A stretch of 63,381 nt of DNA, filler included, from Asterionella formosa (taxonomy: Eukaryota), in NCBI GenBank assembly GCA_002256025.1. It is 7 parts of 7 records of this genome, joined end to end, with 100 filler letters (N's around TTAATTAATTAA, not from the genome) between each part and the next. Parts side by side here need not be neighbours in the genome. Positions count along the whole stretch, not along the records: positions 1 to 27,253 come from NKIB01001558.1; 6 more parts are not named here. The stretch is one strand, 5' to 3'. The notes below the pieces were generated by a model. The model made no database searches and had not been told where the DNA came from. It saw only the letters and a program-made list of their open reading frames with translations. The position numbers and the translations under genes are program-made. This document shows positions 3,001 through 33,397 of the stretch, in pieces. Position 1 is the stretch's first letter; each line of letters opens with the position of its first letter.

Positions 3001-3029
3001 AAAAGAAAGGAATCAATGCGGCCAACAGC

Positions 3030-3581
3030 TGACCTATGGTACAGTATTTACCACGCTAGATCTACTATATCATTAGATGGTATAAGTCCTATATAACGTT
3101 AACCTTATAGGCTCTTCCATACAGACCATATACTTGTTTACTCTCACTGTAGAGATTTACACAATACACACTGTGTATGTATACCACGTCAACCATAAGT
3201 TAAAGGTGTACCCTTTTACATTACGCACACGACTACCATGAAACCCATACGTAGTTACATATACATGTACACGAGAGTGATCATGATTAGTACGTGATGC
3301 TATAGACACGGTTACTAGTATGTAGCTCGTAGTACATATTGCATTATGTACCCGCAGCTATATGTTACGTGATAACTATTGGTGCAGATGTATCTCTAGA
3401 ATAGATGTACCAATGCTAGGCTAAAACAAGACACCTAGCATGGACTCTTGACACCTAGTACATGCCCTTCTCATCAAGACCCTTGTGAGTCCCCTTGGAC
3501 TAGGAGCTAATATAGATACACTAATCATTAAGCTTATAATTACCCAGAACCTACTTGTTGAATCCTGACAACCGTAGGGCA
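3030..3581. mobile_element. Solo LTR (552 bp) with perfect 5-bp target-site duplication
   Basis: Starts TGACCTATGG and ends CCGTAGGGCA (TG...CA, imperfect terminal inverted repeat). Flanked on both sides by ACAGC (3025-3029 and 3582-3586). A second copy lies at 5040-5801. Confidence 0.85.
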
Positions 3582-4997: not shown

Positions 4998-5036
4998 ACA
5001 CATTCACATTCACATTCACATTCACACAGACACACA
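4998..5036. repeat. (CACATT)n / (CA)n microsatellite
   Basis: acacattcacattcacattcacattcacacagacacaca directly before the second LTR; CA repeats resume after it. Confidence 0.8.
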
Positions 5037-5039
5037 GCC

Positions 5040-5801
5040 TGACCTATAGTACAGTATGTACCACGCTAAATATACTATATCATTAGGTGGTATAAGTCCT
5101 ATATAACGTTAACCTTACAGGCTCTTCTATACAGACCATGTACTTGTTTACTCTCACTGTCGAGATTTACACAATGCACTCTGTGTATGCATACCACGTC
5201 AACCATAAGTGAAAGGGGTACCAGGGTACCTGGTACCCTTTTACATTATGCACACGACTACCATGGAGCCCATACGTAGTACATATACATGTACACGAGA
5301 GTGATCATTACTAGTACGTGATGCTAGACACATGGTTACTAGCATGTAGCTCGTAGTACATATTGCATTATGTACCCGCAGGTATATGTTACATGATAAC
5401 TATTGGTGCAGATGTATCTCTAGAATAGACGTACCAATGCTAGGCTAAAACATGACACCTAGCATGGACTCTTGACACCTAGTAGTACACACCAATCTCA
5501 TCATGATTAGTACGTGATGCTAGACACATGGTTACTAGCATGTAGCTCGTAGAACATGTTGCATTATGTACCCGCAGGTATATGTTACGTGATAACTATT
5601 GGTGCAGATGTATCTCTAGAATAGACGTACCAATTCTAGGCTAAAACATGACACCTAGCATGGACTCTTGACACCTAGTACACACCAATCTCATCAAGAC
5701 CCTTGTGAGTCCCCTTGGACTAGGAGCTAATATAGATACATTAATCATTAAGCTCATAATTACCCAGAACCTACTTGTTAAATCCTGACAACCATAGGGC
5801 A
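5040..5801. mobile_element. Second LTR copy with an internal ~200-bp tandem duplication and a 15-bp micro-insertion
   Basis: TGACCTATAG...CCATAGGGCA, collinear with 3030-3581. Segment ~5303-5500 is repeated at ~5500-5695. Extra ccagggtacctggta at 5221-5235. Flanks cagcc/caaca are not a clean TSD. Confidence 0.8.
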
Positions 5802-6484
5802 CAACACACACATCTGACAGAGTTCTGGTGTGGTTAGGAACAGCTTTCTCTAGCACCTCCCAACATGGAATTTCTTTGCAGTAGGAAACGACTTTTTTGG
5901 CATTGGTTTATCACTGCCAGGTTCAAATTCCTCAAGAATTGAAAAATTTAGTAATTTTCCTGACTGGTACTAAGCAAGGACCTTAGCTCGTTCATTCCAT
6001 TTTTCGTCTACACCAACCTTTGGGCTTCATTACCGGTATGTCTGTAACACAAGATAGTTGGTGAGATCGAAGTACGGCAAGTATTGTTTAGTATATACTG
6101 GTATTTTGCTACAACATTGCTTTATAATTATGTTCGTATCTTGTATTTTTAGTCCAAAACGTGAATTTAACATTCGCTATCAGTTCAAAATCTTCAAAAC
6201 GTTTCCTCTCAGTTTTTAGGTCCCTCTGGTTGAAAATAACGGTAGTTGTGTCGATTTGCCGCGACTCAAGTGCCAATCAGCTTGATGGTTTATTCCTGTT
6301 TAATTTATACCGGTACAAAGATATCGAAATCAATCCTGATTCTGGCTATTTATGTGGAGCTCATCGCGCATCAAACTTGTTTGATATTAGTACTCTCAAA
6401 AACAGGAAAAGATGATGAATTTGAAGGCAGAGGATATCATTTTGGCTTCCATTGATCCTTGATTGTGCAATTGCAAAACTTATC

Positions 6485-9400
6485 ATGCCCTCGGAATTCT
6501 CCCTACCTAAGGAAATTAGGTCCTTTGGAACCGTGATTACCAACCGAACAGATCAGACATCGTCACCGACAGCTTCTACGATAAATTCCCGAAAAAGGCG
6601 GAAGCGAGCAACGCAATTCAAAACGAAGACGAAAAGGGAGATTTGTCTTGTTGATAAAGAACAAGATGCTTTCCTGATTCATTCTAGCTCCACTACGCCA
6701 AAGATAAGCAACGCTTCAAGGGCGAAGACAAAGACAACGCTATCAGATTCTGAGCAACAGAAGGAACAACTCGTTGAAGCCCTCAACAAGACAGTTTCGC
6801 ATACATCTATTGCAAACAATGGGGAGAAACATAATAATAATTTGCCTCCCCGAAAAGAATACGATAATAATGTCTCCAAGCGAAAGAAGGTTGGTGCGGA
6901 CTATTTGCAGTCACAGAAAATCAAGAAGATAAAGGAAGTCGCGTATCCGCGTCCTTCCACTCCAGTGTCCGAGATGCCCTCGATTCCAGAAGAAAACTGT
7001 GATATCATGGACTGCGCATCTGATGAAGGATCGCTCGGGAGCTTTTCCGAATCTCCAACAAAGCATACTAATTCGTTCGACAAGGACTTTGTTTCGATTC
7101 CTCCCATTCCAGCACAGCGCCAGATTTCAGTGCTCAGAACGACACCACATGACGACATCCTATCACTGCATAAATCACAATTTCCTCTACACAACATGGC
7201 TCCAAAGTTTCGAAAATTCAAGAAAGGAGCGTTTCATCAACTATTTCAATCTCCTCATAAGGAAGGCTTTTCTGTTGCGACGACCAAGAGGTCCTCACCC
7301 CATACTCCAATGTTTGGAACCAACCAGATTCGGGAGAACTCTCCCGAACCCACTTGGAGTTCGCGGCATCAAACGGCTATAAATCTTCCAAGCAGTGAGC
7401 AGCGACTCCTATTACCAGCGATATCAGGAGTCAAAAGCATCGCCAAGCTTTTTTTGGAAGAAGCTCGCAAAACACCGGCAGACAACGCTGAAGTTATGAA
7501 TGCCATGCTATCCACAAGTTGTAGAGTCGCGCATTATGATAATGTGGTCGGGACTATGATTGGAGGAACAGAACTTCAACGTTCACCGTCTTTGGATGAG
7601 AGCGAAATAACTCTGCTCACATTCGAGAGAATGAATGTTCACAAGACTGGGGCTTCAAAAACGAATCGAAATCAGTCTATGATTCCCAGTAATGGACTTT
7701 CTATTGTTGGAAGTGCTTGCAGTTCTGTGACGAACGGGCGCCCCCCTTTAGTTGCCCACATTTTGACTTCTAGGTGGAGGGAGAAAGGGACAGCAGCAAC
7801 TCGGGAAGTTCCTTCAGTAAAGATTAATCACGAGAGAGTGACCACGCTAAAAAGGCACGACAGCGAGGTTGCGTATGAAGGTACACCTGCACAGCTTCAA
7901 TATTCAGGTAAGAAAACTGGTAACTGTGCAGAGGAGATCCCTATTGTCAGAAAAACTCCCAATGTAAGCTATGGCAAGCGTCAAAGTTCGGCAAATCGTC
8001 GAAAATCTCTGCTCTGCCGCCCACTTACTTCTAAGGACGAAAGTCGCTCTCCTACTTCCATTACGGCTTACAAAGAGAATGAAGACACTGAGAATAATTC
8101 TCCTCCGTCTCCCTCAGGGAAGAAGCGATCCAATAATTTTTCTGCAATTGCTGGTTTTTCACCTCAGAGCTCAATACAATGCTCGATACGAAGGGAGGAT
8201 GGCTCTATCGTGGTAAAACTTGATGAACCATCAGTTACTTTTAGTGAAGCGCCTCAGATGATTTATTTTGACGTAGGAGATGAGTTGATACCGCACCCAC
8301 CGATGCCTCCTGGATGGAAAATTCGTGTATCTGAATCAAAGAACCGGCCATTTTACTGTCATCCTGACCACGGAACAACTTGGCACTGTCCAGTTGTCTT
8401 ACCAAGATCACACGCACCTAATTCTCTTCGATTCAGTGCGACAACTCCCATAGCAGCTGGAAGATCTATGCACTCAATTTATTCAAATGAATCTTCGGTA
8501 GAGATATCGTTCCAAGAGAGACTGGGGTCGAATGAAGTGAAGTTTGAACTGTTGAGCGAGCTCAAGTGGTCTTCTAACCACAGAGCAGATGGAGGAAAAC
8601 AATCTTCTGGGAAAGCATGTCTCCAGGAGGTGCGGGAAGGTGACGAGCACTCCGCTACTTTCAGTAGGTCCTCTTACAATTATAGCGCAGATGGCGAGAA
8701 CGAATCATCCTCAGTTGATGGGCATACATCGTCCACGGCTTCGAGTATTGTGTCGTCCAATCCAGAGGAGCCTTCAATTTCCAGCTCTCAGGACACTCTT
8801 TCAAATGAAAGTCTCTCGACTAAAACTGGCAATTCAAATGGTACCTTAGGACACATTGCTACGAACGAAGAACTTGCACAAACAGAAGTGGAGCAAGGCA
8901 CTTTCGGCGGAGACGAAACCTTGAGCGGCCCTTCACTCGGGACGAATCAAGATATTTATATGCTAAATCATCGAATAGAGGAAGTTGCGAGTTTTTCCAT
9001 GAAACAGCGATCTTCCCATGGAGTATCGAGTTTTATTGCCCATCAATCAGGGAAAAGAGGCAAAATCGAATACAAAGAATCCCACTTGGAAATAATGGAT
9101 GGTGAATCCCCTGAGAGTATTGAAAACGGCCTTCATGTCGTGGATGTTAATGACTGCAGTAAGACCGTCAAAGTAAGATCATGCAATCCAGTTTTGACTC
9201 TCAATGAGAGCGAAGGCCATCATCAGTTTCCAAGCTGCGGAAATGTGCTCAATCTCTGCAATGATCAGAAGAAGACTTATCCGAACATGTATGAAGGCTA
9301 TGTGAACATCCCGGAAATGAATACTTCGGTCGTCCATCGGTTCCAGTTTGACGGGGTTGTTCAAAAGATACACTTGAAAGAAAAGAAAATCGGTGGCGTC

Positions 9401-10045
9401 CACAACGCAGAAAAACTAACCGACGAAAGTACGGTCGATGGCGAACACATCGTGTCCTTGGAAATCGAACCAGAAAGTGACATTGTTCAAGATTTCAAGG
9501 AAGCGATTGACGACTTCCCTATGGGTAATGGAAGCTTGAGTCCGGAGGCCGAACAATCACCCACTCCTGAAATGTTGCAGCATGTAAAACATTCTCCGAG
9601 TGAAGAAACAGAAACCGACGACAGCGATGAAGACAAAGAGACTTTAGAAACTTCAATACAAGACAATGATCGTCGTCAATATCCTGGGTCGTCAAAACGC
9701 AACCCTTGTGGGAGGACAACTTTGGCGTCCATTATAAGCCCTTCGGCCACCTGCAACAATCATAGAAAACTAGACACCTACACAGCAAGCACATCGCCAA
9801 TGAATTTACTTGGTGGTTTTGATTCCTATATGGGTACTGAAAGGACCACAACGAGCTTGAGAATTAGGGAACCTCCTCACCCTATTTGTGCCCTTCAGAA
9901 TCTCGAAATTATCCGTGCCGCAGTGCTGAAAACAACGGTGCAATTCGAAGTGAAAATTAACAAAGAACAGGTTCCTGAGACAATGTTACGCTCAGAAGTG
10001 AGCTCTCAAATTGGTTCCACAATTAAGCGATTGGTTTTTGAATAG
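6485..10045 (+). CDS. Large Ser-rich, probably disordered protein with one WW domain
   Basis: 3.5-kb uninterrupted ORF; first ATG at 6485. PPMPPGWKIRVSESKNRPFYCHPDHGTTWHCP (~8297-8392) fits the WW consensus LPxGW...YY...TTWxxP. Basic NLS-like RKRRKR near the N-terminus. Confidence 0.85.
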   Translation: MPSEFSLPKEIRSFGTVITNRTDQTSSPTASTINSRKRRKRATQFKTKTKREICLVDKEQDAFLIHSSSTTPKISNASRAKTKTTLSDSEQQKEQLVEALNKTVSHTSIANNGEKHNNNLPPRKEYDNNVSKRKKVGADYLQSQKIKKIKEVAYPRPSTPVSEMPSIPEENCDIMDCASDEGSLGSFSESPTKHTNSFDKDFVSIPPIPAQRQISVLRTTPHDDILSLHKSQFPLHNMAPKFRKFKKGAFHQLFQSPHKEGFSVATTKRSSPHTPMFGTNQIRENSPEPTWSSRHQTAINLPSSEQRLLLPAISGVKSIAKLFLEEARKTPADNAEVMNAMLSTSCRVAHYDNVVGTMIGGTELQRSPSLDESEITLLTFERMNVHKTGASKTNRNQSMIPSNGLSIVGSACSSVTNGRPPLVAHILTSRWREKGTAATREVPSVKINHERVTTLKRHDSEVAYEGTPAQLQYSGKKTGNCAEEIPIVRKTPNVSYGKRQSSANRRKSLLCRPLTSKDESRSPTSITAYKENEDTENNSPPSPSGKKRSNNFSAIAGFSPQSSIQCSIRREDGSIVVKLDEPSVTFSEAPQMIYFDVGDELIPHPPMPPGWKIRVSESKNRPFYCHPDHGTTWHCPVVLPRSHAPNSLRFSATTPIAAGRSMHSIYSNESSVEISFQERLGSNEVKFELLSELKWSSNHRADGGKQSSGKACLQEVREGDEHSATFSRSSYNYSADGENESSSVDGHTSSTASSIVSSNPEEPSISSSQDTLSNESLSTKTGNSNGTLGHIATNEELAQTEVEQGTFGGDETLSGPSLGTNQDIYMLNHRIEEVASFSMKQRSSHGVSSFIAHQSGKRGKIEYKESHLEIMDGESPESIENGLHVVDVNDCSKTVKVRSCNPVLTLNESEGHHQFPSCGNVLNLCNDQKKTYPNMYEGYVNIPEMNTSVVHRFQFDGVVQKIHLKEKKIGGVHNAEKLTDESTVDGEHIVSLEIEPESDIVQDFKEAIDDFPMGNGSLSPEAEQSPTPEMLQHVKHSPSEETETDDSDEDKETLETSIQDNDRRQYPGSSKRNPCGRTTLASIISPSATCNNHRKLDTYTASTSPMNLLGGFDSYMGTERTTTSLRIREPPHPICALQNLEIIRAAVLKTTVQFEVKINKEQVPETMLRSEVSSQIGSTIKRLVFE

Positions 10046-10151
10046 TAACTCTGCTAGACTTTTTCAATTGTGTTTATAAGACTGTTGTTTGTTGCATCGA
10101 ACTTCACCTTTATCACTTCAGCAATAGGTACACGAGGGGAAGCAGATCTTA

Positions 10152-10772
10152 TTAGCCACGGAGAATTCTATTGACTTGTTCTGGAGTCAAATCTAGCCGA
10201 AGTGGAACAGCGACTAACGGCGAAGTTCCAGCTCTGGGCTTCTTGTTCGTTTCTTTTATCTGATAGAGCACATAGTCCAGTTGATTATATTTGACTAAAA
10301 TCTCGACAATCGCTTGTAAGTGCATCAAATAATCCAGCTCCGTGTTATGGCGCCATCGGCCACGCGTCCCAAGTTTAAATGGCATTACATTGAGATAGAT
10401 TTCACGAAATCCAAACGAGTTCACAGGCTGAAATTCCAAATCATAGCAGCCGTCCCACTTTTCTAAGATAATATCGCGCAAATCATAACCATCAAATTCC
10501 ACTGGTTCCTGTAAGATACCTTCCCTTCTACTTATTTCAGCTTGGAAAGCATCGACAGATATGTCGTCCTCAGAAACTGACTTGAAATCCTTTCCTACAA
10601 GGTCACAAAGGATTTCATTGGAAGCCTTGCTAGAATTAAATTGGTCAAGCGCGTTATCGAGGAAGGACGCTTTCAGTTGCTCTTCCACTCGCTGCCAAAC
10701 CAGTGGTGAAGGTCCTGGGGCAAAAGCAGTCGTTGCTGCAATCAGGGACAAAATAGATGCCTTTCGGTTCAT
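10152..10772 (-). CDS. Plastid-targeted DUF3067-family protein
   Basis: Signal peptide ending in TTAFAP (diatom ASAFAP motif). C-terminal LRDIILEKW..YDLEF..IYLNVM..DYLMHLQAI..ETNKKPR..AVPLRLDL matches cyanobacterial/plant DUF3067. Confidence 0.8.
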   Translation of the reverse strand: MNRKASILSLIAATTAFAPGPSPLVWQRVEEQLKASFLDNALDQFNSSKASNEILCDLVGKDFKSVSEDDISVDAFQAEISRREGILQEPVEFDGYDLRDIILEKWDGCYDLEFQPVNSFGFREIYLNVMPFKLGTRGRWRHNTELDYLMHLQAIVEILVKYNQLDYVLYQIKETNKKPRAGTSPLVAVPLRLDLTPEQVNRILRG

Positions 10773-11235
10773 GGTTGAGAACAATATATTTTATAAAGAT
10801 TGGATGCTTTTTCTTTTCTTTTCCGAAAGTGTCCCCTTCATCCGTAGCTTGTGAGTAATACCAGCAGCACGTTGCGGTAAATGAGAAATGTAGCCATGTT
10901 TCCTTCATGGCCGTGCTCTGATAAATAAAAAATTATTACATTATGTGCGTACCAACACAAATTATTTTGGTGATTTGCTACATAATAAGATATTTAAGAT
11001 TACTTACCGGTATCTGACTTTAAGGTTCCTGCATTTGAACCCCTAGCTCGAGGTAGGGTTTAAAAAATAATATTAAGTCAGAGTAGTCAAACATAGACTT
11101 CTTACGAGTAAAATGTAAATGTATATCGCTAAACGGAGCTTTCACCAATACACACCCTTTCCACATGCTAAAATACAGTCATTTATCAAAGTAGGGGTAT
11201 AGGTCAACGCTATATATCGTCAGGATATAGGATCT

Positions 11236-11358
11236 GGCGAGAAACTGCAGAAAGGAACTTCGGTTTTTTAACTATGCTGAAAATAGTGGATTTTACCGGG
11301 CTAACTCGTTTAATTGGCCTAGTAAAAAAACCGAAGTTCCTTTCTGCAGTTTCTCGCC
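11236..11358. repeat. Perfect 34-bp inverted repeat with 55-nt loop
   Basis: ggcgagaaactgcagaaaggaacttcggtttttt (11236-11269) and its exact reverse complement at 11325-11358. Confidence 0.95.
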
Positions 11359-11534
11359 GAAAAATAACTTCTGGGGCTATATGAAGATTACCTATGTACT
11401 TAACTCTTCTTCAAACCCTGCCAACGTTGAGCTATCGTCGTCCAAAAATTCGACGATATCGGCCTTTTCAACGGTCACCAAAACGTCGGAATCAGAATCA
11501 CTATGACATAAGGATCAAATTGCTACTGTTAGCA

Positions 11535-12633
11535 ATGTGCTATCCACCAGTAAATAAGAGGCCATTGTTCAGGGAAAGTTTGACTGTTGATGAGGCCAGA
11601 AGAAGAAGTGGCAAAATCCGTCGCCATGCACTACTACAGCATCCATTGTCGAGTGCTCCATTCTGGACTTTGTTCAACAGCAAGCATGATGATGCTCTGA
11701 TAACCTTGTGTGGATTTTATCATGCTTCTTTCGAGCTCCTACACCAGCTGTTCAAACCTTGTTTTCTTGTCTTGATTCCTTTACTCTCTGTAGGAAAAAT
11801 ATGGATTTCATTGTTAGAAATTCAACAACCAAGAAAGGTCGGCAAAGAACTCATGGTTCCTATGTGATTCTTCAGATTGTTTCGGATTCACTCACGGTTC
11901 TTTGAGTGTTTGTTTGAGGTTTTCAAGGCAAATGAGTGTAAAAGTACTGCTGACACATGAAGATGCCATTGTGAGACTGCCTACTGCAGACGAAGCCACC
12001 TTGTTTGCAACCATGATCAATCAGAAAACCTACTTATAAGAAATTGCTGGGGAGCGATGGATGGTCTGAAACTGACCCTGCAACAAGCTGGAAATGAAAC
12101 ACAGCAGAACAATTTCTACAATAGATGGACTCGCTCATGAAGACTATGTGACAAACTTGTATCATATTTCGCCTTATGGCAAAATTCACTGCTCATATTT
12201 CAATGCACCTGGTGTTCTCCATGACTTCACCATGGCAATTTGGACATCGATATATGATCAGATTGAATTATTTTACAGGGATACAGGTTAAAGAGTAGTT
12301 GTGGATTCAGCATTTGCATCTAAGAAATCAAATGCAAAATTGAAATTGCATCAAAATAATGTTGATACAAATGGTAATCCTTGACAAAGAATTGGTGTGA
12401 ATCGCCAAGCCACCTCAATCCAACAGCTGTCGGAATGGGGAATGCGATGCCTTCAGGGATCATTTCCGAGAATCAAAGACAAATTTCGTTACGAAGAAAA
12501 AGGTGAGAGAATATTAATTCTCCAAATGATTGTATTGCTCTAAACCTTTTGTGCTAGCAAAGTTGGTCAGAACCAAATTACTTCAGTGTATATGCCCTAT
12601 TTGCATAGGAATGCAAATAGATATGCCATGTAA
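11535..12633 (+). pseudogene. PIF/Harbinger DDE transposase pseudogene
   Basis: Motifs across frameshifts and stops: DDALITLCGF, CWGAMDGLKL, NAPGVLHD, VVVDSAF, IQQLSEWGMRCLQGSFPRIK, VGQNQI..VYMP. Confidence 0.85.
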
Positions 12634-12696
12634 TTCAAAGAAATAATTCATTCATGATTATTTACCACCACTTCTTTCATTTTATATTAGAATGAA

Positions 12697-13629
12697 TTAA
12701 TTCATCATCACTACTACTACCACTGTTGTTTTTTGGTGTTTGACATTGAGTTGAGGCAAGGTTTGTTGTGTATTGTAACCTGCTGTTGTATTTAAATTTT
12801 GGTTTTGCATTGTTTGCTGCATTAAAATCATGTTCGAAACAATAATTGAATTCATCATTGCCTGAATGGGATCAGCATTGTCAGATTTGGAGGTGGCTGT
12901 TTGAGGTACCCCACAATTCAACAATGATGCCATGATTGACATCATCATCATGTTCATCATATTATGCTGCTATTTTTGCTGCTGTTGATGCTGCAGGTTA
13001 TCAGTATCAGTTCAAGTAGCCTTGTGAAGCAACTGCGTCGACAGAAGAGAAATCACTTTCTCAACAGTCCCAGTATTGCTCAACACTGCCTTACCTCTAA
13101 ATCGAGGGGACACCATAAATCTTGAACCAGAGAAATTAGCATAAGCGGCAGAAGTTGCTTCACCATTGTCTTCACTCTCCCCAGAAATTGCTATAAAATC
13201 ATCATCAACATTTGGCTTGTCAATATTGGGCTCATCGTGTTCCCTCTCTATCCTAAGATCAGACAAGTCAATCTCAGCACTTGCATATGCTCGTTGCTCG
13301 ATTTTTCGAAAAATGTGTTTGGCTTCTCTCACCTCAGCAGGGCATGTTGGTTCCCCAGTTGGTTTCTTAACTTTGTGCAGCTGTGTAAACTTTCGGCGAA
13401 GTGAAGATCCTGTCTGTTCTTTGTCTGGGAAATTCTCGTTGTGCTGTGAAGCAACAAATTCCCATTCATGGGACCCAATTGCTTGGCAGGTGAGTAGAAA
13501 TGGCGTCCAGCAATGAGAGGATCTCATTGATCCTGAACTGTTGATCCCAACTCTGCATGCTTCGGTGAGCTCTTGGAAACGTTGGTGGTTGCCTGTCAGT
13601 TGCCATTCTTGCAACTGAACTAGGAGCAC
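12697..13629 (-). pseudogene. Harbinger ORF2 Myb/SANT-like (DUF6818-like) DNA-binding protein remnant
   Basis: IGSHEWEFVASQHNENFP...SLRRKFTQLHKVKKPTGEPTCPAEVREAK followed by a Gln/Met-rich tail. Convergent with the transposase inside the TIRs. Confidence 0.75.
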
Positions 13630-15107
13630 GTAAAAACCGTTGTTGTTCCTTGATGGGGACTGAGTAACCCCAGAAACACCAATCTGAGAAACACTGGGAT
13701 TTGGTCAACACAAACTCAAATTTTGGGGTTATGGGTACAACGATTTGTATTGATAAAATAATTTTTTATTATCAGAGCACGCCCAGTAAGACCTTTCGTC
13801 TACTGCTCATAGCAAGGCAACTGTAATTAGTATGTTGAGATATGAGATATGAGATATGAGAAACTTAGCTTATTTATGCTGAAAGTAATGGCCTTGCTTT
13901 CCTGGACCTCCCAGTGGTTTCCAACCAATCCCATGTGCTACAAGTTATTTGTTATCATCAGCCATATGTTGCAATAGATATGCTTGTCTGTTCATGGATT
14001 ATTTTTGGTTCATTATATGGGCTCTTGACTAATAGGAGAAATCAGGAGTTTGGAAACTTATCATGTTGACTTCAGTTTTGGGGAATTTTCCTCAAAATTG
14101 CTGCCTGTGATGGAGGAAATCTCCTGATATCTCTGCAATGGTGCCAAGAAGCTAAACGAGCCTCAGCATGTCATACTAGTGAAAAGAATGGAGCAATTGT
14201 TATGGGAGTAAAGATCAGCAATCTTGCGATTGCAACTCTTATTTGTTGCATGATAAATACAATAATATAGTGAAAATTTATTCTGATATTTTTCTTTCAC
14301 AAAGCTGAGTTTTCAGTGCATTGTCCCAGATTTGGGTTGGAGAAGCTAAATCAACCTGGAGGCAGGAATGAATTCTTTCGGTGTTTAGTCTGCAACATTT
14401 ACTTATAAAAAAATGTTAAAAGGTCTGCTTTAACTCGTTCTCCTTCCAACATAAGTGATGACATGTGGTTTTAAAAAAATTCTTCTGTTGTTAACACCCA
14501 TGCAATCATTTGTGTCATGAGTCCAAATTCTCTCTTTTGACTGATCAGCTTTTGTTGATGTAGATCCAAAATGGTATGGCTGGCTGCAGATAAGAGCAAC
14601 TCAAACACATGTAACCTTCATGTACATTGCTGTCGACTATTAAAAAGTTCATGAGCTCTTGTTCCCTTACCATCACCGTTATTCTTGTCTGCCTTGAATC
14701 AAGGATTAAAAAGCAAGTCAATGGGAAATTGTGTGCTGCCCTAGGCCGAACACAGGCTCATAAATTTTGTGGCGTGGACATCTATTGTCATTCTGAAGCG
14801 TGAAGTTATGAGATTTTGCGCTTTGTGACATTTCTTGGGCATGGTGCTACCCTATGTCTGTCTGGTTCAGTGTACACAAGTAAGCCAATCAATGCATTAG
14901 TACTATGGGTTGGAGCAGATGAACGAATACTATGATCCGGCAAAACCAGAGATGGTACAGCGTTTGTTTTCGGTGACTTGGTGCCCCTTGATTTAGATGA
15001 AAAAATGGGAATTGTTTCTCTAGAAGGTCCCTTTTGTGCTACAGACACGAAAGTAGTGCATTAACTCGCATTAATACGACATCAGCACCTTGGTGTTTCT
15101 TCATTGC

Positions 15108-17474
15108 TCATACTTTATTTTGAGGAACATTTGCCACCTCCTTCTCAAAGTCAAGTCGTTTCGCCTCGATCGCATTCTTGACATCCTCTCGAAATACAAG
15201 TAGTCGGGATAGAGAAGGCCCTTCTGCCATTTTCAAAATTTTTCCCTTGCTCATAGTTGCAATGGACATCGATTTCGCACTTGCCTTGTCCTCCGAGAAA
15301 CCTGCCTCCACAGTTGAAGAAAAAATGGAATTAAGGGGGGTAGTTTCATTGCCGGGAAGCTCTTCCTCTGATGATTTGGACTCTCTCGAAGCAGCATTTA
15401 ATTTTTCAATGCATTTATCAGCGTTAGCGAGTATTACGGCCTCTTTGGAAAACACTCTCCACCTCGGCGCATCATCAAATGAGGTTGGTATTAATCCCTC
15501 ATCAGACTCTGTAGGTGGTAAAGTCAGGAATGACAAACCGGAAACTGAGCTTCCAACCGATTTGACAGATCCAGTAGGTGATGAGGGTCGGGGCAAGGAA
15601 AGAATGACAAGATCACTTGCGTACTGTCGGCGCCTTCGCGAAACATGATAATCATTCCCTTCAACTGGAACTGCAGCTTGACTGTTGGTGCGGCTAGTGA
15701 CAACTGAATAGTCTGAATGACCTGGTTGACTACTCCGAGCTGTCGGCGCGTAGCCACCTTCCTTCTTGTATTCAACCGTATTCGATCCTGGATTATGATT
15801 ATTGTTACCGCTGTCAGCATTTGTTGGCCAAGGAAGGCTGCTCGATATCATCTCGTCAGTGACATGCAACAACGAAAGAGATTTCTCTTCTGGGGACATT
15901 TGCATTATAGTAGTCTTGGAAAGCTTGGCGTTGGAGGAGCTCAGGTTCCTATGGTGCGGTTTTTCTCGCTTAAGACGCTTCAGTATTGCACTCGATTTCG
16001 ACTTGACAAGCAACAGCGAAAGAGATTTCTTCTCTGGAGACATTTGCATTACAGCAGTCTTGGAGAGCTTGGTGTTAGAGGAGCTCACTTTCCTATGGTG
16101 TGGCTTTTCTCGCTTAAGGCGCTTCAATATTGCATTCGATTTCGACTTGACTTCTAGTGGTGACTTTTTCTTGCTCAATCTGTCGACAAACAATTTTTCC
16201 TTGGCAGAAACCTCCCTCTCTTCATCCGCGGAAGTCTCTTCTCTGGCACTTTCACCAACCTCGACAGGGCTGTCCTTCAACATGTCTTCAATAGCTAATA
16301 TTGCCTTCGAGTGAGAGTATATGAATGGTCCGGTTGTAACAGTTGGCTCCGAATTCCGGCGGCGTGCCCGAGACTTGGCTTCAAAGAAACGACGTTGTGA
16401 CTCCATACTGGCAGCACTCAAGAGAGACATACTTCCGACACTGACGCTATCATTGTCGTCATCGTCTTCATCCAAATTTTCAAAATCGAAGAACCAACTG
16501 TTGGTATCCTTTAAATCAAAGGACTTACTGCGCTTTAATCGTGGTTGCTTTAATTCTTTGACCATACCCTGGATATTTTCAAATTCTTTGTGTAGAACAC
16601 GATAATTCTGAACGTCTTCGTATCGGTCTTCGAACTTGCTGGCGCGACGCTTAATCTTTGCTTGATGATTCATTAACTTAACTTGGACCTTGAGCTTGTT
16701 GAACTGAGACAAGGTATGTGGATCTACAGATGTAGGTGTCGGCCGATGTGTCTTCGCTTCTCTTGACTTTGAAGGAGGACTGTGATGGACGATACTATTT
16801 GGCTTTGTGCTTTTGGCATTTCTCAATTTGATGTGAGATTGCGGCCTTGGTGGCGACTTCTGCCGAGTGGAAATTTTCTTCTTCGGAATCATGAGCGGTC
16901 CAGGCTCCATTTCCCAATTGTCGATTTCATTGTCTTCCTCAGTGACTCGATGAAAGGACTCTTCCTCGTCACTTGGTGCATCAGGATCCACCTCCTCGGG
17001 AATTACGTCTTCATCAAACTCTTCGTCAAAGTCAGCGACAACTTGTATGGTGTGTCGTATTGACGGAGATTTCACAAGCATTGGTTCGGTTAGATCTGGA
17101 ACTCGATCAATTTCGTCATATTCCTCTTCTTCCTCCGTGAGATACTGCTGAGACAAGCTCTTGGTCAGTGAAGCGATCTGCGCCAGCATACTTGAAGAAC
17201 TTTCTGAACGTTCGTCGTCGTCGAGCGATTTGATAGCCGACGAGGGAGTCTCAGGTGTTGTTCCGGTGGTATATTCCGACGGAGACGCAAGCCCTCGAGC
17301 GGGGAAGTCATTGAATCCTCTTAAATTTAAGCGTTTAGGTCGCTTATTGTTTGTAGTGTTTGTATTCGCTGACTCGTGGACTAATTGCAGAGGTCGTAGG
17401 TTCCGTTCTTTCGCATTGAGAGGCGGAGAGTGTGAGTTCAAATCCGACTGGAAGATACTCTGGCATTGACCCAT
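15108..17474 (-). CDS. Hypothetical protein with N-terminal MGxCxS acylation motif and a 48-aa tandem duplication
   Basis: Long ORF with ATG at 17474 giving MGQCQS (myristoylation/palmitoylation-like). Acidic and Ser-rich tracts. 144-bp duplication at 15866-16151. Confidence 0.8.
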   Translation of the reverse strand: MGQCQSIFQSDLNSHSPPLNAKERNLRPLQLVHESANTNTTNNKRPKRLNLRGFNDFPARGLASPSEYTTGTTPETPSSAIKSLDDDERSESSSSMLAQIASLTKSLSQQYLTEEEEEYDEIDRVPDLTEPMLVKSPSIRHTIQVVADFDEEFDEDVIPEEVDPDAPSDEEESFHRVTEEDNEIDNWEMEPGPLMIPKKKISTRQKSPPRPQSHIKLRNAKSTKPNSIVHHSPPSKSREAKTHRPTPTSVDPHTLSQFNKLKVQVKLMNHQAKIKRRASKFEDRYEDVQNYRVLHKEFENIQGMVKELKQPRLKRSKSFDLKDTNSWFFDFENLDEDDDDNDSVSVGSMSLLSAASMESQRRFFEAKSRARRRNSEPTVTTGPFIYSHSKAILAIEDMLKDSPVEVGESAREETSADEEREVSAKEKLFVDRLSKKKSPLEVKSKSNAILKRLKREKPHHRKVSSSNTKLSKTAVMQMSPEKKSLSLLLVKSKSSAILKRLKREKPHHRNLSSSNAKLSKTTIMQMSPEEKSLSLLHVTDEMISSSLPWPTNADSGNNNHNPGSNTVEYKKEGGYAPTARSSQPGHSDYSVVTSRTNSQAAVPVEGNDYHVSRRRRQYASDLVILSLPRPSSPTGSVKSVGSSVSGLSFLTLPPTESDEGLIPTSFDDAPRWRVFSKEAVILANADKCIEKLNAASRESKSSEEELPGNETTPLNSIFSSTVEAGFSEDKASAKSMSIATMSKGKILKMAEGPSLSRLLVFREDVKNAIEAKRLDFEKEVANVPQNKV

Positions 17475-18134
17475 GGTGGTGATACGTTGTCTGGAATTCA
17501 ATCCACTTCAAATCCCAACGGTGACTAGAAAAGAAACTGACGTAGAAGCGAGAGGAATTTGGTGTAGAAAATGCGATCGGTTTACAATGCAATCAATTTT
17601 CCTCAACGGTATCTCAAAACTTAGATTACGATTATGATTGATTGATTTGCTTCAGCTGCGATTGCGTGCTATACAGTTCCATATAGTAATCTTCTGGATC
17701 AACAACAAACATAAAGATTCGATGGACCTTGCCTTCTGCAACTTTGAGGTTGAGGATTAACGTAGTATTTGTAAGTATGTTATGTCTAAAATCCAAAGAA
17801 CGGTGATTTAGTCGTTTGTGTATGCTCAATTTTAAGCACTTGGCGCGAAACAGTTGCCGAGACTGTACATCCATACCCGTATACAAACAACCAGGGGGTA
17901 CCTGGTTACCAGCTACTCCGTCAATGAATATTCAGTACTGTACTCCGGTTATTTGCAGACCGACGCAACATAGCACCGGTAGGCACCGGTACAATTTTTT
18001 TGTTTTGAATTATTTTTGACGGACTGAAATCGACAACGGTCGTTAAGCAAGCGTGGTCATTTATATAATGAGTAACGCCGCTTTACCGGTACAAATCAAA
18101 AATTCGATTTTGAAATCGTCGGACGAGGAAGACC

Positions 18135-18426
18135 GCTTTGGTACGCAGGTACCACGTATACCCGGTATTTCAGCAGTATACCGTTTACCTGGTACGAGGT
18201 GGACTACCAGGTACCAGGAACCAGGGTACAAGTCTCACCGTTAAATTTGATCCATCATATTTTCCCAGTTCTATATGTCAGTACTCCACGGTACTACGTA
18301 GCTAGACGTGTACCGTACCTGGTACCAGAACCAGGTAAAGTGCCAGCATCTGGTACCTGGTACCCTGGTACCTTGAGAGTACCTACCACTGTGGTACCTG
18401 GTACCATGGTACCAGGTACCGGTATG
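18135..18426. repeat. Dense array of TA-CC(n)GG-TA / GGTACC micro-palindromes
   Basis: e.g. ggtacctggtaccctggtacc (18352-18372) and ggtacctggtaccatggtaccaggtaccggta (18393-18424). Confidence 0.9.
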
Positions 18427-19429
18427 TGAGAGAGCGGAACGTACTTGCGATCAAGTCGTCAACGACTGATTTAAAAGTAGATACCAAACTGGGTACTTGG
18501 TAGAGAACCGGGTAGGTGTTTAAAAACGGTGAAATATTATGAATATTGTAAAGTACGATATAGCTCAGATGCATCATCATCAGAAGCAGAGAGAAACTAC
18601 AAAAAGAACCCTCGTTGGCCCTTGAGCATAATTATTTAGAAATTCTTTCGATGTATTAATCACCATACCGGTACCCTGGTAGTGTAATCGTTGTTTCTGG
18701 CGGGGGAGCATCTTGCATCATGTTGTTGCCGCCTTGACCAGCATGACGAAAATAGCGGATATCTCTGCGAAAATCGAGAACAACGCCTTCCTATTTGATA
18801 TGTATATCTAGCACAACGTAAATATACAACTGCACAAGAACTATTGGTATAGCACTAGTATTACCAACGAAAATTAAAGTCGCCAATTTAGAAGTTTTTC
18901 ATTTACTTTTAGAAATGATGTTTGACAAAGATTCAACACTTCAAACTAGCTGCACAACAACTACTGCTACACAATATAATTACTAATTGAAACTACTGTG
19001 TTGTCTGAACAACTGTGCGCATCTCAAGATTTGCTGATGTTTCATGACAAGAGTAAATGATGCAATTTTGCTGATTACAATAAAATTGCTTGTTTTGCTA
19101 TCTCGCTCATCATCGTATGCACATACCAGTACAGACCAGTATCTATGCATGATTACTACCAGTTGGCAACAGCAGCATGACCTCCATGGCCAAACTACAA
19201 ACGATTTTTCCTCGTACATATGTTGTGTACAACAGTACAGCCTGCCCCACCCAGGAGCTTGTGTCAGATGACAGTTTGTCAGACACATACTGTAGTAATA
19301 GTTTTCAGACATCATTAACTTCTTGTCTGACACACACAAATAGCATAGTACATATTCTTGGATCAAGATGATGGAAGACAGCATGAAGCTAGAAGACAGC
19401 ATGAAACTAGTACCAGTGTACCATTACTG

Positions 19430-20050
19430 ATTTTACCTACTACTGTTAAACAGTACATCTAATACCTGTGCTTCAAGTGTGGCTGGTGTGATTTTACAAG
19501 ACCGGATTACTTCAGCCAATCTGGAGCAGGTGAGTAAATTCAATTCAACCAATCAGAATATGTGTAGGGCAGTGATGCGGCAACTCACCCTGGAGTCTTT
19601 TCGGACTGAGAACTATGCAGCAAAACATACCTATGCAAGACTCTAACTCTACGAGAACGTTTTGCACACACAAATTCCGATTCCAATATTTTGGCAACTG
19701 TTGAAAAAGCCGATCGGGTCGACTTTTTGGAGGACGATTGCTCTAGCTACATCTGCGGGGTTTCATGAAGATTGAAGTACCCGGTAGACAGCCGTGTACC
19801 CTATAACGTCAGGAGTTAACTTCTGGAGAGAAACTGCAGTTATGTATTGTAGATTTTTAGAAAAGCTTCGTAGCCTCCTTTTTGACTATTTTTGCTATGA
19901 TTACGAATCTGCGATACATAACTGCAGTTTCTATCCAGAACTGATGTCCTTGCTATATCCGAAGATAGAACATGCCCCTAAGTCGACCTATGACTGTAGC
20001 TAAGCATATGCAAAGTGGTCGTATTGCTGGTGAAAGCTAATTTTACCTTT
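19430..20050 (-). repeat. Dispersed repeat, diverged reverse-complement copy of ~36775-37330
   Basis: Shared blocks ctggagcaggtgagtaaa..caaccaatcagaat, ggagtcttt..cggac.gagaa and ggtgaaagctaa, present in inverse order at 36775-37330. Confidence 0.75.
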
Positions 20051-20844
20051 AACTATTTTTTGTACTTGTACTAAAGGTCTGGATTAACGTGCATCATAAA
20101 TTATTTTGGGGAAAAATGGACCTCGTAATATGTAACTCCTGTGGTCGTAATGTGTAACTCCTGTGGGGCCGCAACCTTAATCCATTGGATATTTGGAGAT
20201 ATTGGGAGCCGCTTGATGATTGCTGCTACCGCTATTCAATGTCCGCATTGGCAGGATGTCATCCTGCATGCCTTACCATGAAAGAAAGTGACGTAGCCAG
20301 TGAAGCGGCACTGTCACTGCAGAGGTATAGTTTTAATGACATGTCGATCTTGTATAACGAGATAAAAGAGTTTATGAAAAGATGACTTGAGGCTATCCCA
20401 AACAGTTCCGCACGAGTTGAACTATTCCAAACAACAGATGGCTATTATTTCCTTTATATTTCTGCTGGTCCATGCTAGTTGCAAGCACCAACCAAATGAA
20501 CTTCAGCTGTCCGCTAGCCAACAGAGAGGCATCTATCGCTAGTATGTTGACGCGAAAGGCCCAGACAAAGGAATCTTATGAGGCGGATGGATCCCATTGG
20601 TGCGAAGTGGAGATGTTCTAAGATTCTGCTGTGAGTTCGTGTTAGTGCGGAAGATCCTGAATTGTCTCTTGGTAGGTGAAGGGTACTGATGGGGACATAC
20701 TATCTTCTATGTGTCTGTACTGGACCCTACCTGTGTCGAGAATTTCGCACCATGGTCTTTCTGTTGGTGGACACCTGTCTCTCTCTCCATTCAGTTTTGT
20801 GTCGAACTTAATTCTTGTGGGTTGCCTTGAAATATTGCAGTAGG

Positions 20845-21200
20845 TATACGAATTGACACGGGAAAATTCAAAGACAGTACATCAGGTTGTGGATAACAAT
20901 GATATCCTCATGCATTGTATATATTTGAATTATGTGTAAGCTTAATTGATGATAGCATAAACATTATGTCCATATATTTATATGTTTTCAAATTTTTATA
21001 AATGTATACATAGCCTTTACATTTGAAATCATATTTAGAGGTTCCTTGTTATGCCTACCAGTACCACATGATCCTGAAATGAAAGATAATCTCTGCCCTG
21101 TGACAAGGAAAACTGAAAGAACGACACTTCAACACACATAATGATGATAAACCTTGCAGCTTAGATGGATTGAAAATGGAAGAGTGAATGGAATCTAGCT
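20845..21200 (+). repeat. Dispersed repeat related to ~285-780
   Basis: Shared gaattgacac...tcatgcattgtatatatttgaa.tatgt.taa, acatttgaaatcat and cctgaaatgaa.gat blocks. Confidence 0.6.
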
Positions 21201-22457
21201 ATCATGGTATGTCAATAGTACACTTAAGAAAATGTTCCATGTTTATCCAATTTGAATGGCATGGGTTTGCAGGACCTCACAAACCAGGCCAATCAAACAG
21301 AGGAATGTAATTAACATTCACCAATCATATTATATATGTGGAAGCAGGCACTTACAATGGAATTTGTTGTGGACAGGAGATTTTAGGACTAAAATTTTCA
21401 GCACAAGACTACCATTCTGAAGATGACACTTTGGCACTTAATAATTCTGATTCCATTATTTTGGCAACCATAGAAAAGGATGATTTTGTCAAAATTTTGG
21501 ACAACAATAGCTGAATGTTGGCTGGGTCTGAAGGCAATTTAGATACATAGTTAACTTTCAAATAGCATCAGTATACAATTCATCAGAACCTGTTTTTTCC
21601 AAATTATCTGAGAATATCAAATCTTTCTGGTCATGTTTATTTTGGCAAGTGGGTGCAAACTATTAGAAATTTCAAACTTTGATTTTTCAATGGCTCATGA
21701 GTCAGGAAATAGCGGTTGGTTCTGGTAATGCACAACACAAAGAAGCAAAATTACTGCAACTTGCAGGAGAGAAATTTCGGCACCACACAACCATGTGCTT
21801 GGGTTTGCTCAGGCAAGCAGGACAGGAACCAACAACACAACGCAATATTAACCTGCCAGTAGTGCCTAACCTATCCATTTGGTAATCACGGAGAAGATTC
21901 TCATGATGAGACAGGGGCCTTTCAATTGCAGAGCTCATGGATTCACGCCCTGACGCTTTTCAACAACTCACTTATTCTGATTTGGAAAATGAACAATCCA
22001 TAATGCATTTGCAGCATCGGGGGGACATCACAACACTTGAAAAGATTGATGGCCACTCTAGAGCTCTTAGAAAAATCCAATTCTGATGACCCCACTGAAC
22101 ATTTATCAGCGCAAATTCCATTGCGCAATGCAACCAGTACACCCAGTGTTGACGAGCATGCCCATATTCCACACCATGTCAACGTTTTCAATGCCGTTAA
22201 TGCTAACATAAAATTGGAGACAATCGAAAAATATTATTTGGAATGTTGGAACTGAATGCAGAGTGGGACCTTTTATACCTTCGAAAATGCATTGTCATTG
22301 TAGCAGAGACCATGGAATCTGCACCATTTCAATTGTCTCTCACAGAGAGAGTTTGAATTCGAGCAATTTTTCAATTAAACATATGTAGCTCTATAAATGC
22401 GGAATCGATGATAGGAAGCAGTAATGGTTCTTAAAAGTTTTTACACATTCAAGAGCA

Positions 22458-23585
22458 TTAATCTGTCCCAACCGTAGCTTTAATGCTGGTGGGAGCAAAT
22501 GTCCACGAAACGTGCGCATCTTCATCGTCATGATGATGCCTAATGGTAGCCCACAAGCTGGCTCCAATCCATGAAATGATATCAGGTTGATGTGGTAATG
22601 TCGAAATGGCTTGTGCGGCAATGGCGAGCGGTGCAAGGGATGTAAACGATCCTGGGACGATAGTAAGATCGGAAGTTGGTTCCTCCTCCAATATTTCCGT
22701 TTGATGTTGAAGTATACTTCGAAGCCTTTCGATAACTCGCCTTCCAATATCTGGAACCAATACTATGGCGTCCCCACAAAATACAATGTTAGAAATAAGA
22801 TCTCGCCTCACTTCGATCGACGACGCTTCGAGGCACTTTACAACTGCCATCAGTATACTTTCTGGATTTCTTTCGTTTAACCAATGCTTATCCATATCTG
22901 TTGTCCATGAAGTATGAACAGTTCCGTCAACCTTGGCAGCACTGTTGTAGCCGCTTTGGACGACTGGACGAAAGTAACATAGAAGTGTAAGAACAATGAA
23001 TGTTTTGATTCCTTCGGCACAGCTCAATGCATGCGACGCTACTCCAACGTAATACCTACCTTGCAGAGTATTTTTCAGAGCATGACCATCGGCATGGGCC
23101 ATGCACCAGGTTTCCGTCATTCCAACTTGCACCACCATTCCTCGTGACCACCCCATGGCAATGGGCACAGTCTCCAATGAGTTGACCAGGACGACTGCAG
23201 GTACTCCCAGATTCCATAATCCTCGCAACACCACCACTTCCCATGTTCGCTCCATGTAGGGAGGACCTATTAATACAACACGCCGGGTGGAGGGGGGTGT
23301 CATGAGTAAATTCCAAATCTGCTCAAACATCGGACCCACGATCTGATGCCATTCCATCTCTGTCTTTGGCGCAGTCTGGTTGTTGTCGTGTCGCCAAGGT
23401 ATAATATGCAGTGGCTTGCATTTTTCGGCATACCCAACCCGAATGAGGTAACTGGTCCATTCGATCACAACTGGAGGTCGTTCTGTGGAAACTGAAAATG
23501 CCGAGCGAGCAGAGGACAATCGCGGCCCTTTTCTCTGCGAAGCTGTCGGAATCACGCGGCTTTTGTGGCTCCTGGGAACAACCAT
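22458..23585 (-). CDS. Divergent actin-related protein (most like dynactin ARP10/ARP11), one in-frame 96-nt intron (22964-23059)
   Basis: Actin-fold motifs PVVIEW..LIRVGYA..PLHIIP, RRVVLI, LGVPAV, GMVVQVG..ET, RRDLISNIVFCG and SWIGASL. GTAGGT...CCAG intron. Start codon is uncertain. Confidence 0.7.
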   Translation of the reverse strand: MVVPRSHKSRVIPTASQRKGPRLSSARSAFSVSTERPPVVIEWTSYLIRVGYAEKCKPLHIIPWRHDNNQTAPKTEMEWHQIVGPMFEQIWNLLMTPPSTRRVVLIGPPYMERTWEVVVLRGLWNLGVPAVVLVNSLETVPIAMGWSRGMVVQVGMTETWCMAHADGHALKNTLQGRYYVGVASHALSCAEGIKTFIVLTLLCYFRPVVQSGYNSAAKVDGTVHTSWTTDMDKHWLNERNPESILMAVVKCLEASSIEVRRDLISNIVFCGDAIVLVPDIGRRVIERLRSILQHQTEILEEEPTSDLTIVPGSFTSLAPLAIAAQAISTLPHQPDIISWIGASLWATIRHHHDDEDAHVSWTFAPTSIKATVGTD

Positions 23586-24366
23586 GCTTTCGATGTTTCT
23601 TCGTGGAATCTTACGGCTCCCTTGAGCGTTCGCTGAATCGTGAAAGGTTCGATGTGGGCTCACGACAACAAAGCAAAGGATCACGAGGGCAAACCAGATT
23701 CGACCACCATGAAAATGTTAAATGAAGTACCGGCTGTTAGAGAAATTATTTTAGGAGACATACCGGTATGAAAATTACCTGGTAGAAAAAAATATATTGA
23801 ATCAAATGAATCAAAAAGAATACGGTATCAAGATGAAAATTCGACAACAAAGCACCACAAGGGACTCATAATTCGATGAAATCTTTTTTCAGGAATGATT
23901 ACAAGTGATCTCAATCACACCGTTTTTTGCATCTACAGCCTATTTGGTCCCTGACATATCCTTAGAGCATCTCCACCATATTGACCAAATACCAAGTCAA
24001 TTGCAGTTGGTATACAAAACACATCATGATGTGTTGCATTGGTCGAAAATACGAAAATATGTTTGCCACTGCATTGGCCAAGTCCAATTTTGCTTTGGTC
24101 TTGGTAAACTACGACCCTCATTTAAACCAAATATTAGAGATTGGTCTAGATTAAGGCTTGCACTGTCAACATAACATCCTTGGTTTAATTAGTGTGCACG
24201 TAGTTACAATACATTTTCAGTACTATCTTCATATAGACAAATACAACCATCAGCATGTCAGCTCAGTGTCAACACATACATGTACGCATAATTTATTCAA
24301 CATCATCAACATTGTCAGGATAGGTTCAGGTGTTACATGGAAGAAGGAAGAGGATAAGGCTCACTT

Positions 24367-26563: not shown

Positions 26564-26648
26564 ACATCTAATATGATGACTCTTCTTTGATGTATGCAAA
26601 ACAAATATTTGGTGAAACTAAATTCTAACATACTACCAGGTACAAGGT

Positions 26649-27253: not shown

Positions 27254-27353
27254 NNNNNNNNNNNNNNNNNNNNNNNNNNNNNNNNNNNNNNNNNNNNTTA
27301 ATTAATTAANNNNNNNNNNNNNNNNNNNNNNNNNNNNNNNNNNNNNNNNNNNN
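27254..27353. other. Artificial contig linker (N44-TTAATTAATTAA-N44); also at 54567-54666, 56327-56426, 58091-58190, 59855-59954, 61619-61718
   Basis: Identical 100-bp spacer with a six-frame stop sequence, occurring six times. Confidence 0.98.
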
Positions 27354-27758
27354 TGTATTTGTTGTAGTCACGTGATCATTTTCCTATTCTATTGCCTAGT
27401 ACGTGCTGGACGAGTGATAGTAGAATGTACGGGTAGTGACAGCCAAAGCCAAAGTATTTGCACAGCTAGTATATGTCGTAGTCACGTGATCATTTTCGTA
27501 TTCTATTGCCTAGTACCTTGTCATGAATTCCCGGACCAGGTACCAGGGTACCAGGTACCTGGTACTGGTACCTGTAACTAGATAGCGGGCATGTCTCTAT
27601 GCACATGACTCAATCTGTTCAATTCTCGACTCAGTGGTTTTCGTTCTTTGGTGTTGTGGCTGAACATTACCACACACGGCCGCTATATTGATTGTATTGT
27701 GCTTCTTTGATGCACACCATAATAATCTTTGTGTATATTATATAGATGTCAATAAAAG

Positions 27759-33392: not shown

Positions 33393-33397
33393 TACCT

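Follow-up and report, generated by a model that had tools for sequence, protein, structure and literature searches.

The non-transferred strand is cut by Tc1/mariner transposases a few nucleotides into the element, and terminal letters then stay between the duplicated TAs after end joining; the footprint of Sleeping Beauty, for example, is CAG (PMC8151067). Here, we analyzed a stretch of DNA of 63,381 bases (the window) that contains 42 short palindromic units of the form TA-CC(N0-2)GG-TA. The footprints of Tc1, Tc3, and Mos1 are likewise comparable. Similar to the Tc1/mariner footprints described in PMC8151067, the units consist of a duplicated TA with a few terminal letters between, and their junction outcomes vary by one or two letters. 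Unlike those footprints, the units are palindromes in which letters of both ends are always retained, occur at a density of approximately one block per 2 kb, and are stacked in arrays that share TAs. Also unlike the Tc1/mariner cases, the approximately 73 kb of DNA of this genome that was searched in all (the window plus four contigs, L001 to L004, that carry copies of a PIF/Harbinger element) yielded no resident element whose ends match. By analogy, the process would work like Tc1/mariner footprint formation; because the defining donor and transposase were sought in this small sample and not found, we do not assign the units to Tc1/mariner. A search of the literature on footprints, palindromic TA insertions, mariner, and diatoms returned no description of this signature.

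Other systems invite comparison. Micro- and minisatellites share the short-period tandem structure of the arrays; in contrast to them, the window has single units in unique DNA, and neighboring units are unlike one another. The GC clusters of yeast mitochondria are short, G+C-rich mobile palindromes found at A+T-rich sites, many per genome; they are organellar, 30 to 50 bases long, and without a fixed TA duplication, and, unlike in their case, there is no evidence here for mobility of the unit itself. The termini of piggyBac begin with CCC and end with GGG. According to PMC8151067, piggyBac targets TTAA and excises without a footprint, whereas the flanks of the 31 blocks into which the units group are TA, not TTAA. 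Stowaway-type MITEs (miniature transposable elements with inverted repeats) in grasses are TA-duplicating, non-autonomous relatives of Tc1/mariner, and their presence or absence and their footprints have been read by sequence comparison (PMC1925063). The TA-flanked element of the window at 32479-33394, however, has CT..AG ends, and its footprint class is not enriched. What is unusual in the window is the combination of one sharply defined palindromic scar class at approximately one block per 2 kb, the stacking of unlike units, and the lack of a visible donor. On balance, and with moderate confidence, we lean toward the view that the units were left by excision of a cut-and-paste transposon that targets TA, has CCA(G)...GG ends, and re-inserts into its own scars.

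TA-bounded palindromic units in the window

The window comprises seven contigs (two of approximately 27 kb and five of approximately 1.66 kb) placed end to end, with a G+C content of approximately 40%. At each join is a synthetic linker in which TTAATTAATTAA has 44 N on either side; the linkers are located at 27254-27353, 54567-54666, 56327-56426, 58091-58190, 59855-59954, and 61619-61718. The pattern TACC(N0-2)GGTA occurs 42 times, whereas 100 dinucleotide shuffles gave a mean of 0.93 and a largest count of 5, and an order-3 Markov model gave an expectation of 2.68. A preliminary description of this DNA, made from the sequence alone, had proposed that such units are a recurrent micro-insertion signature, and within the window the enrichment over both backgrounds bears this out. 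The same cores had also been said to recur across contigs; the motif is indeed present in three of the seven, namely, both 27-kb contigs and the contig at 59955-61618. The most over-represented 8-mer of the window is TACCGGTA. Enrichment of the second-ranked 8-mer, TTAATTAA, was rejected as a genuine signal because 12 of its 18 copies are the synthetic linkers, which inflate its count. In two bacterial metagenome-assembled genomes (MAGs; 3.5 and 3.8 Mb) used as a negative control, the motif matched 78 and 148 times, compared to 114 and 68 times for the reversed pattern.

The spectrum of cores is narrow: CCGG (17 units), CCTGG (9) and CCAGG (7), CCCGG (2) and CCGGG (2), CCAGGG (2) and CCCTGG (2), and CCATGG (1), with the asymmetric units balanced in orientation. 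Unit centers are limited to none, A/T, C/G, AG/CT, or AT, and no unit in the window has a three-base center. The two-base centers are AG/CT in four units and AT in one; they are never AA, TT, or TA despite a genome A+T content of 60%, which argues for core letters that are templated rather than added at random. All 16 classes of two-letter ends were then scanned in the form TA-XY-N0-2-rc(XY)-TA, where rc is the reverse complement. Only XY=CC was strongly enriched. The next class, XY=TA (22 versus 5.2 expected), is TA-rich simple sequence, and both the classical Tc1-type CA..TG footprint class (7 versus 4.7) and the CT..AG class (6 versus 3.5) are at background levels. TA stands on both sides of all 42 units by definition of the pattern; variants of TACCGGTA altered at position 1 or 8 have background counts, and, because changing the outer T or A has this effect, the outer TAs belong to the motif.

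The 42 units form 31 blocks, of which 22 are single units and 9 are arrays of two to four units sharing TAs. These are listed below by window position, together with the two empty paralogous sites to which filled sites are compared.

157-164, single TACCGGTA
3202-3215, empty paralogous site with a single TA, in the repeat copy at 3025-3479
5219-5235, two-unit block TA-CCAGGG-TA-CCTGG-TA, a 15-base insertion relative to 3202-3215
6031-6038, single TACCGGTA, no indel in the X4 contig
6308-6315, single TACCGGTA, no indel in the X4 and X2 contigs
11005-11012, single TACCGGTA in the Harbinger copy of the window, TC in three other copies
18084-18091, single TACCGGTA, first of the eight hot-spot blocks
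18159-18167, single TACCCGGTA
18186-18194, single TACCTGGTA
18205-18213, single TACCAGGTA, followed by decayed units
18316-18324, single TACCTGGTA
18354-18370, two-unit block CCTGG, CCCTGG
18395-18424, four-unit block CCTGG, CCATGG, CCAGG, CCGG, including part of the palindrome at 18393-18420
18666-18681, two-unit block CCGG, CCCTGG
19778-19786, single TACCCGGTA, inserted (7 bases) compared to the paralog at 37021-37045
23761-23768, single TACCGGTA, 44 bases upstream of the actin-related ORF at 22461-23717 (minus strand)
23776-23784, single TACCTGGTA
26634-26642, single TACCAGGTA
27541-27564, three-unit block CCAGGG, CCAGG, CCTGG
32450-32465, two-unit block CCAGG, CCAGG, the only identical neighboring pair
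32498-32505, single TACCGGTA in the left arm of the element at 32479-33394, AA in the right arm
35677-35684, single TACCGGTA
37021-37045, minus strand, empty paralogous site with a single TA
37347-37361, two-unit block CCAGG, CCGG
39031-39038, single TACCGGTA, 34 bases upstream of the ORF at 37771-38997 (minus strand)
43855-43862, single TACCGGTA
44068-44076, single TACCGGGTA
44513-44521, single TACCTGGTA beside decayed units
48134-48142, single TACCGGGTA
52357-52364, single TACCGGTA, also present in the repeat copy at 61529
53487-53501, two-unit block CCTGG, CCGG
61529-61536, single TACCGGTA, site matching 52357 in a 90% identical repeat copy
61578-61585, single TACCGGTA

The blocks are clustered. 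Thirteen of the 31 blocks have a neighbor within 100 bases, compared to a mean of 3.2 when blocks were simulated at random TAs, and 3 of 5000 simulations reached 13. One hot spot (17860-18700) is intergenic, lies upstream of the open reading frame (ORF) at 15111-17507, and holds eight blocks and many decayed units. Within it, three units make up a perfect 28-base palindrome at 18393-18420, GGTACCTGGTACCATGGTACCAGGTACC, which could extrude as a cruciform. Sequencing depth at 18406, in the four-unit array, is ∼130 to 500 times the single-copy depth in four runs, which suggests hundreds of similar arrays per genome, although these are metagenomes and other organisms could add to the depth. In 26 of 62 half-flanks, a G adjoins the TA on its outer side, versus a background of 0.21, a preference for G-TA-C, the context that each unit itself creates. 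None of the 31 blocks lies inside an ORF of at least 200 amino acids; such ORFs cover 23.8% of the bases (P=0.0002) and 14% of the TAs (P=0.009). This avoidance fits selection against insertions, targeting of open chromatin, or both. Two units (39031 and 23761) lie 34 to 44 bases upstream of ORF starts.

The tandem structure of the arrays raises the question of whether micro- or minisatellite slippage of a GGTACC(W) unit produced them. Tandem Repeats Finder reported 7- to 8-base periods at four places (18205-18225, 18350-18424, 27535-27565, and 32447-32466). In addition, contigs from two sequencing runs of other studies that span the array-rich region differ from the window in length, with 7 gap letters and 3 substitutions in run X3 (contig 15628-18388) and 22 gap letters in run X4 (contig 13757-18950); unit-level length polymorphism in this region is suggested. 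However, slippage cannot produce a single unit in unique flanks, and 22 of the 31 blocks are of that kind. Neighboring units are identical in 1 of 11 pairs, where independent draws predict a fraction of 0.25 and slippage predicts a fraction near 1; this unlikeness of neighbors disfavors slippage as the builder of the arrays. Array heterogeneity fits what independent events would give. Slippage is contradicted as the sole cause and is a very improbable account of the units, although the copy number of existing arrays may still change in this way.

Filled and unfilled copies

The preliminary description drew on three sites at which one copy of a repeat is plain and the other carries a unit, and all three read in the window as it gave them. 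At the first, which it had described as copies of a long terminal repeat, self-BLAST showed that the copy at 5034-5506 has 15 extra bases at 5219-5235, a two-unit insertion, compared to the single TA at 3202-3215 in the copy at 3025-3479. At the second, self-BLAST showed 7 inserted bases at 19778-19786 compared to the paralog near 37021-37045, which has a single TA. At the third, described as the two arms of a MITE, an inverted-repeat search found TACCGGTA in the left arm of the element at 32479-33394 and AA in the right arm, a difference of 6 extra bases and one substitution. Each of these comparisons has two copies, and none gives polarity by itself.

Polarity was read from an alignment of five PIF/Harbinger copies, one in the window and one in each of L001, L002, L003, and L004, which are metagenome contigs that match a 20-mer from this high-copy element. 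L002 alone has CCC-TACCGG-TATTTGC; the other four copies have CCC-TATTTGC. The change from TA to TA-CCGG-TA is clean and private to one copy, and insertion polarity is established once, in this family. This result, together with the single narrow core spectrum, supports the proposal of a TA-bounded insertion signature. The Harbinger copy of the window has a private TACCGGTA of its own at 11005, where three other copies have TC. At a repeat joint in run X1, in which the genome of this alga is present at approximately 900x, one of the four variants listed adds CGGTA after the TAC of the window at 21574-21576, which yields TACCGGTA, and the others read straight on. Across the five comparisons with a known unfilled state, that state is TA in three (5219, 19778, and the L002 site), AA in one (32498), and TC in one (11005). 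The units at 52357 and 61529 occupy the same site in 90% identical repeat copies; here, TACCGGTA is inherited within a repeat family.

Public runs that contain DNA of the window come from 15 studies and are labeled as algae or as freshwater, lake, or river metagenomes; the source organism is most likely a widespread freshwater alga. Comparison of the actin-related ORF with a protein atlas did not usefully refine its taxonomic position. Contigs from runs X2, X3, and X4, all from other studies, cover the single units at 6031, 6308, 11005, 23761, and 23776 with at most 1 gap letter. The X4 contig 5900-11046 has 33 substitutions and 0 gaps, the X4 contig 21735-23822 has 1 gap letter, the X2 contig 6213-7106 has 0 gaps, and the X2 and X3 contigs 23146-23960 have 1 gap letter. 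The 6- to 8-letter gap expected of a missing unit was not present at any of these five sites in the contigs of the other-study runs. X4, the best-covered run, diverges from the window by ∼0.6 to 0.9%.

These contigs bear on whether the units are an adapter, linker, or assembly artefact, an origin that the preliminary description had set against its own proposal. Synthetic N44-TTAATTAATTAA-N44 linkers are present in the window, but the units lie inside contigs, away from the linkers. Because the contigs of X2, X3, and X4 reproduce the sites without unit-sized indels, the units are not assembly or adapter products, and a separate metagenome contig, L002, has its own private unit. An artefactual origin is contradicted on both counts and is hardly credible.

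Donor search and origin of the units

A donor and its transposase were sought in the DNA at hand. In the window, no TA-flanked CC../..GG pair with 12 of 16 matching inverted letters was found beyond the motif arrays and unrelated repeats, and the intact TA-flanked element with CC..GG ends envisaged by the preliminary description was not among them. The Harbinger contigs L001 to L004 contain no TA-flanked CC..GG element. No Tc1/mariner, pogo, or other TA-type transposase was detected in 106 ORFs, which comprise 14 long ORFs and 92 of the 141 ORFs of at least 80 amino acids, the rest being nested in or identical to long ORFs; the transposases identified belonged to MULE, DDE_Tnp_4, and rve plus RVT_2. 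At no site was an element seen in place. Because cut-and-paste scars can far outnumber copies of an element and only ∼73 kb was searched, a low-copy donor could be missed.

Three donor candidates were rejected. At 58834-58991, the inverted repeat continues past the TA, so that the TA is not a target duplication; the pair 52827-53174/59956-60302 lies on different contigs and consists of copies of a repeat; and a possible end at 18221-18240 is without a second copy. The element at 32479-33394 (∼916 bases) has TA on both sides, and a TA-duplicating type of transposon therefore exists in this genome. Its 19-base arms are 95% complementary and read TACTCYCTCTGTCCAATAA, presumably resembling the ends of Stowaway-type MITEs. 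Because its ends are CT..AG and its predicted scar class is at background, it is not the source of the CC..GG units.

In the footprint reading, an element that is Tc1/mariner-like, or of another type with a 2-base duplication, would duplicate its TA target on insertion. Its termini would begin with CCA(G) and end with (C/G)GG. Excision would cut a few bases inside each end, and end joining would leave TA, 2 to 4 bases of the left end, 2 to 4 bases of the right end, and TA. Each scar would make new TAs in the G-TA-C context that the element would prefer, and re-insertion and re-excision at or near old scars, combined with local hopping, would result in arrays of unlike units and in hot spots in open intergenic DNA. 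Scars in coding sequence would be removed by selection. Ends of CCA...GGG, with two or three letters kept on each side, would yield CCGG, CCAGG/CCTGG, CCGGG/CCCGG, and CCAGGG/CCCTGG and so account for 41 of the 42 units, and symmetric ends of CCAG...CTGG account for 38. The preliminary description had named CCA...GGG ends as the source; the core spectrum agrees with that part of the proposal, while no element with such ends was found. The direct observations are that the units are enriched and TA-bounded, have a narrow core spectrum, show insertion polarity in one family, form heterogeneous arrays, cluster, and avoid ORFs; from these we infer the transposon itself, its end sequence, its cut stagger, and its re-insertion preference; the mechanism has this standing because no donor or Tc1/mariner transposase was found and because two of the five unfilled states are not TA.

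Several points weigh against excision footprints. In addition to the negative searches for a TA-flanked CC..GG pair and for a TA-type transposase, the unfilled state reads AA at 32498 and TC at 11005, where TA is predicted. CCATGG, the full 3+3 product, is the rarest unit (1 of 42), and CCSGG (4 of 42 units) needs asymmetric ends or an added base. A density of approximately one block per 2 kb is far above that usually ascribed to footprints. The preliminary description had supposed a very active element; at the five single sites covered by other-run contigs no ongoing activity was seen, and for the present that activity is not supported. Finally, one-mismatch neighbors of TACCGGTA are weakly enriched (52 versus 34.6 on both strands), an excess of approximately 9 per strand, compared to the approximately 19 predicted by steady birth and neutral decay from 17 exact copies.

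The missing donor is what would be expected if the units were written without a transposon, either by a nuclease or repair process at (G)TA(C) that writes CC(N)GG or by a self-propagating micro-palindrome that spreads through template switching or gene conversion. The two empty sites that are not TA, the strong preference for the G-TA-C context and for existing units, and the perfect 28-base palindrome point in the same direction, and the hundreds of array copies suggested by the depth at 18406 are possible templates. However, we know of no mechanism that writes a constant 4- to 6-base core de novo. Single units occur in flanks that are unrelated and have no template close by, fixed end letters would account for the core spectrum, and, with ∼73 kb searched, the lack of a low-copy donor means little. 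We regard a transposon-free origin as unlikely, if worth keeping in view.

The shortage of one-mismatch derivatives is compatible with a recent burst, but also with selection that keeps the palindrome exact. Under such selection, the units would be a promoter motif, cis-regulatory or bound by a protein, whose core is GTAC or ACCGGT, and the insertions would represent gain of sites. The positions of the blocks agree with this: all 31 lie outside long ORFs, two units closely precede ORF starts, and a dense cluster lies upstream of the ORF at 15111-17507. The single sites also show no indel in other-run contigs, but a match between runs says little about selection because at 0.6 to 0.9% divergence nearly everything matches. 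In contrast, private insertions occur inside transposon copies and in a repeat arm, the spacing of the half-sites varies from 0 to 2 bases, and the arrays overlap by shared TAs, unlike the architecture of binding sites. The origin of the units would, moreover, be left unexplained. A regulatory motif is thus an improbable explanation.

Returning to excision footprints, a more specific form can be envisaged, which we consider rather unlikely as a whole. A low-copy, very mobile, TA-specific transposon, or a nuclease domesticated from one, would prefer the G-TA-C of its own scars. The result would be a self-reinforcing system that grows palindromic GGTACC arrays in promoters and leaves tens of thousands of micro-insertions.

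Genomic setting and significance

The PIF/Harbinger element at 10908-13789 has a depth several hundred times that of single-copy DNA in four runs, and its inverted ends begin with GGGCGCGCTCTGATAA. L003 contains an intact copy, with a 410-amino-acid DDE_Tnp_4 ORF and a 412-amino-acid DUF6818 ORF; the copy in the window is decayed, with stops and a 48-base deletion. Among viral contigs, neither the Harbinger 20-mer nor the three-unit array pattern had a match. Two bacterial MAG contigs that share the 20-mer (L005 and L006) have no other similarity and were set aside as chance matches that do not point to algal contamination. Another repeat family, at 19240-21907 and 36190-37331, is also present at several hundred times the single-copy depth. 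Because it shares a segment with the Harbinger region at 11026-11504 (66 to 76% identity), its sequence suggests that it may be a non-autonomous Harbinger derivative.

A MULE-type transposon at 39418-42823 contains an ORF with a MULE transposase domain (40090-40695), and its inverted ends are approximately 150 bases long (39418-39568 and 42654-42823; 73.5% identical). At 58811-58828, a telomere-like repeat (TAACCC, three times) adjoins a ∼176-base element (58826-59000) that has inverted ends of 26 bases and, internally, a tandem duplication of 36 bases; the region 58811-59000 may be subtelomeric. A Copia-type pol (rve, SH3_retrovirus, and RVT_2; 56375-58138) takes up the whole of one 1.66-kb contig and is truncated by the contig ends. 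The window has long unbroken ORFs of eukaryotic type. Their Pfam matches include an actin-family protein, an isocitrate/isopropylmalate dehydrogenase with EF hands, a bacterial-type PheRS beta chain, and DUF3067, in addition to the Copia-type pol and the MULE transposase.

Should there be no donor, a mechanism not yet described would be needed to explain the constant CC(N)GG core. If the units are footprints, they would be among the densest records of cut-and-paste transposition in a genome, with approximately one scar block per 2 kb of noncoding DNA, and much past transposition may be recorded in them. They would form a mutation class that can be read from sequence, providing population genomics with polarized, nearly homoplasy-free markers, and they would imply a transposase with high excision activity, a possible genetic tool for algae. 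A transposon of this kind could reshape promoters without staying there. Were the self-reinforcing system to be real, its footprints would be readable as a lineage record of transposition, and its arrays may supply hairpin-forming or regulatory DNA.

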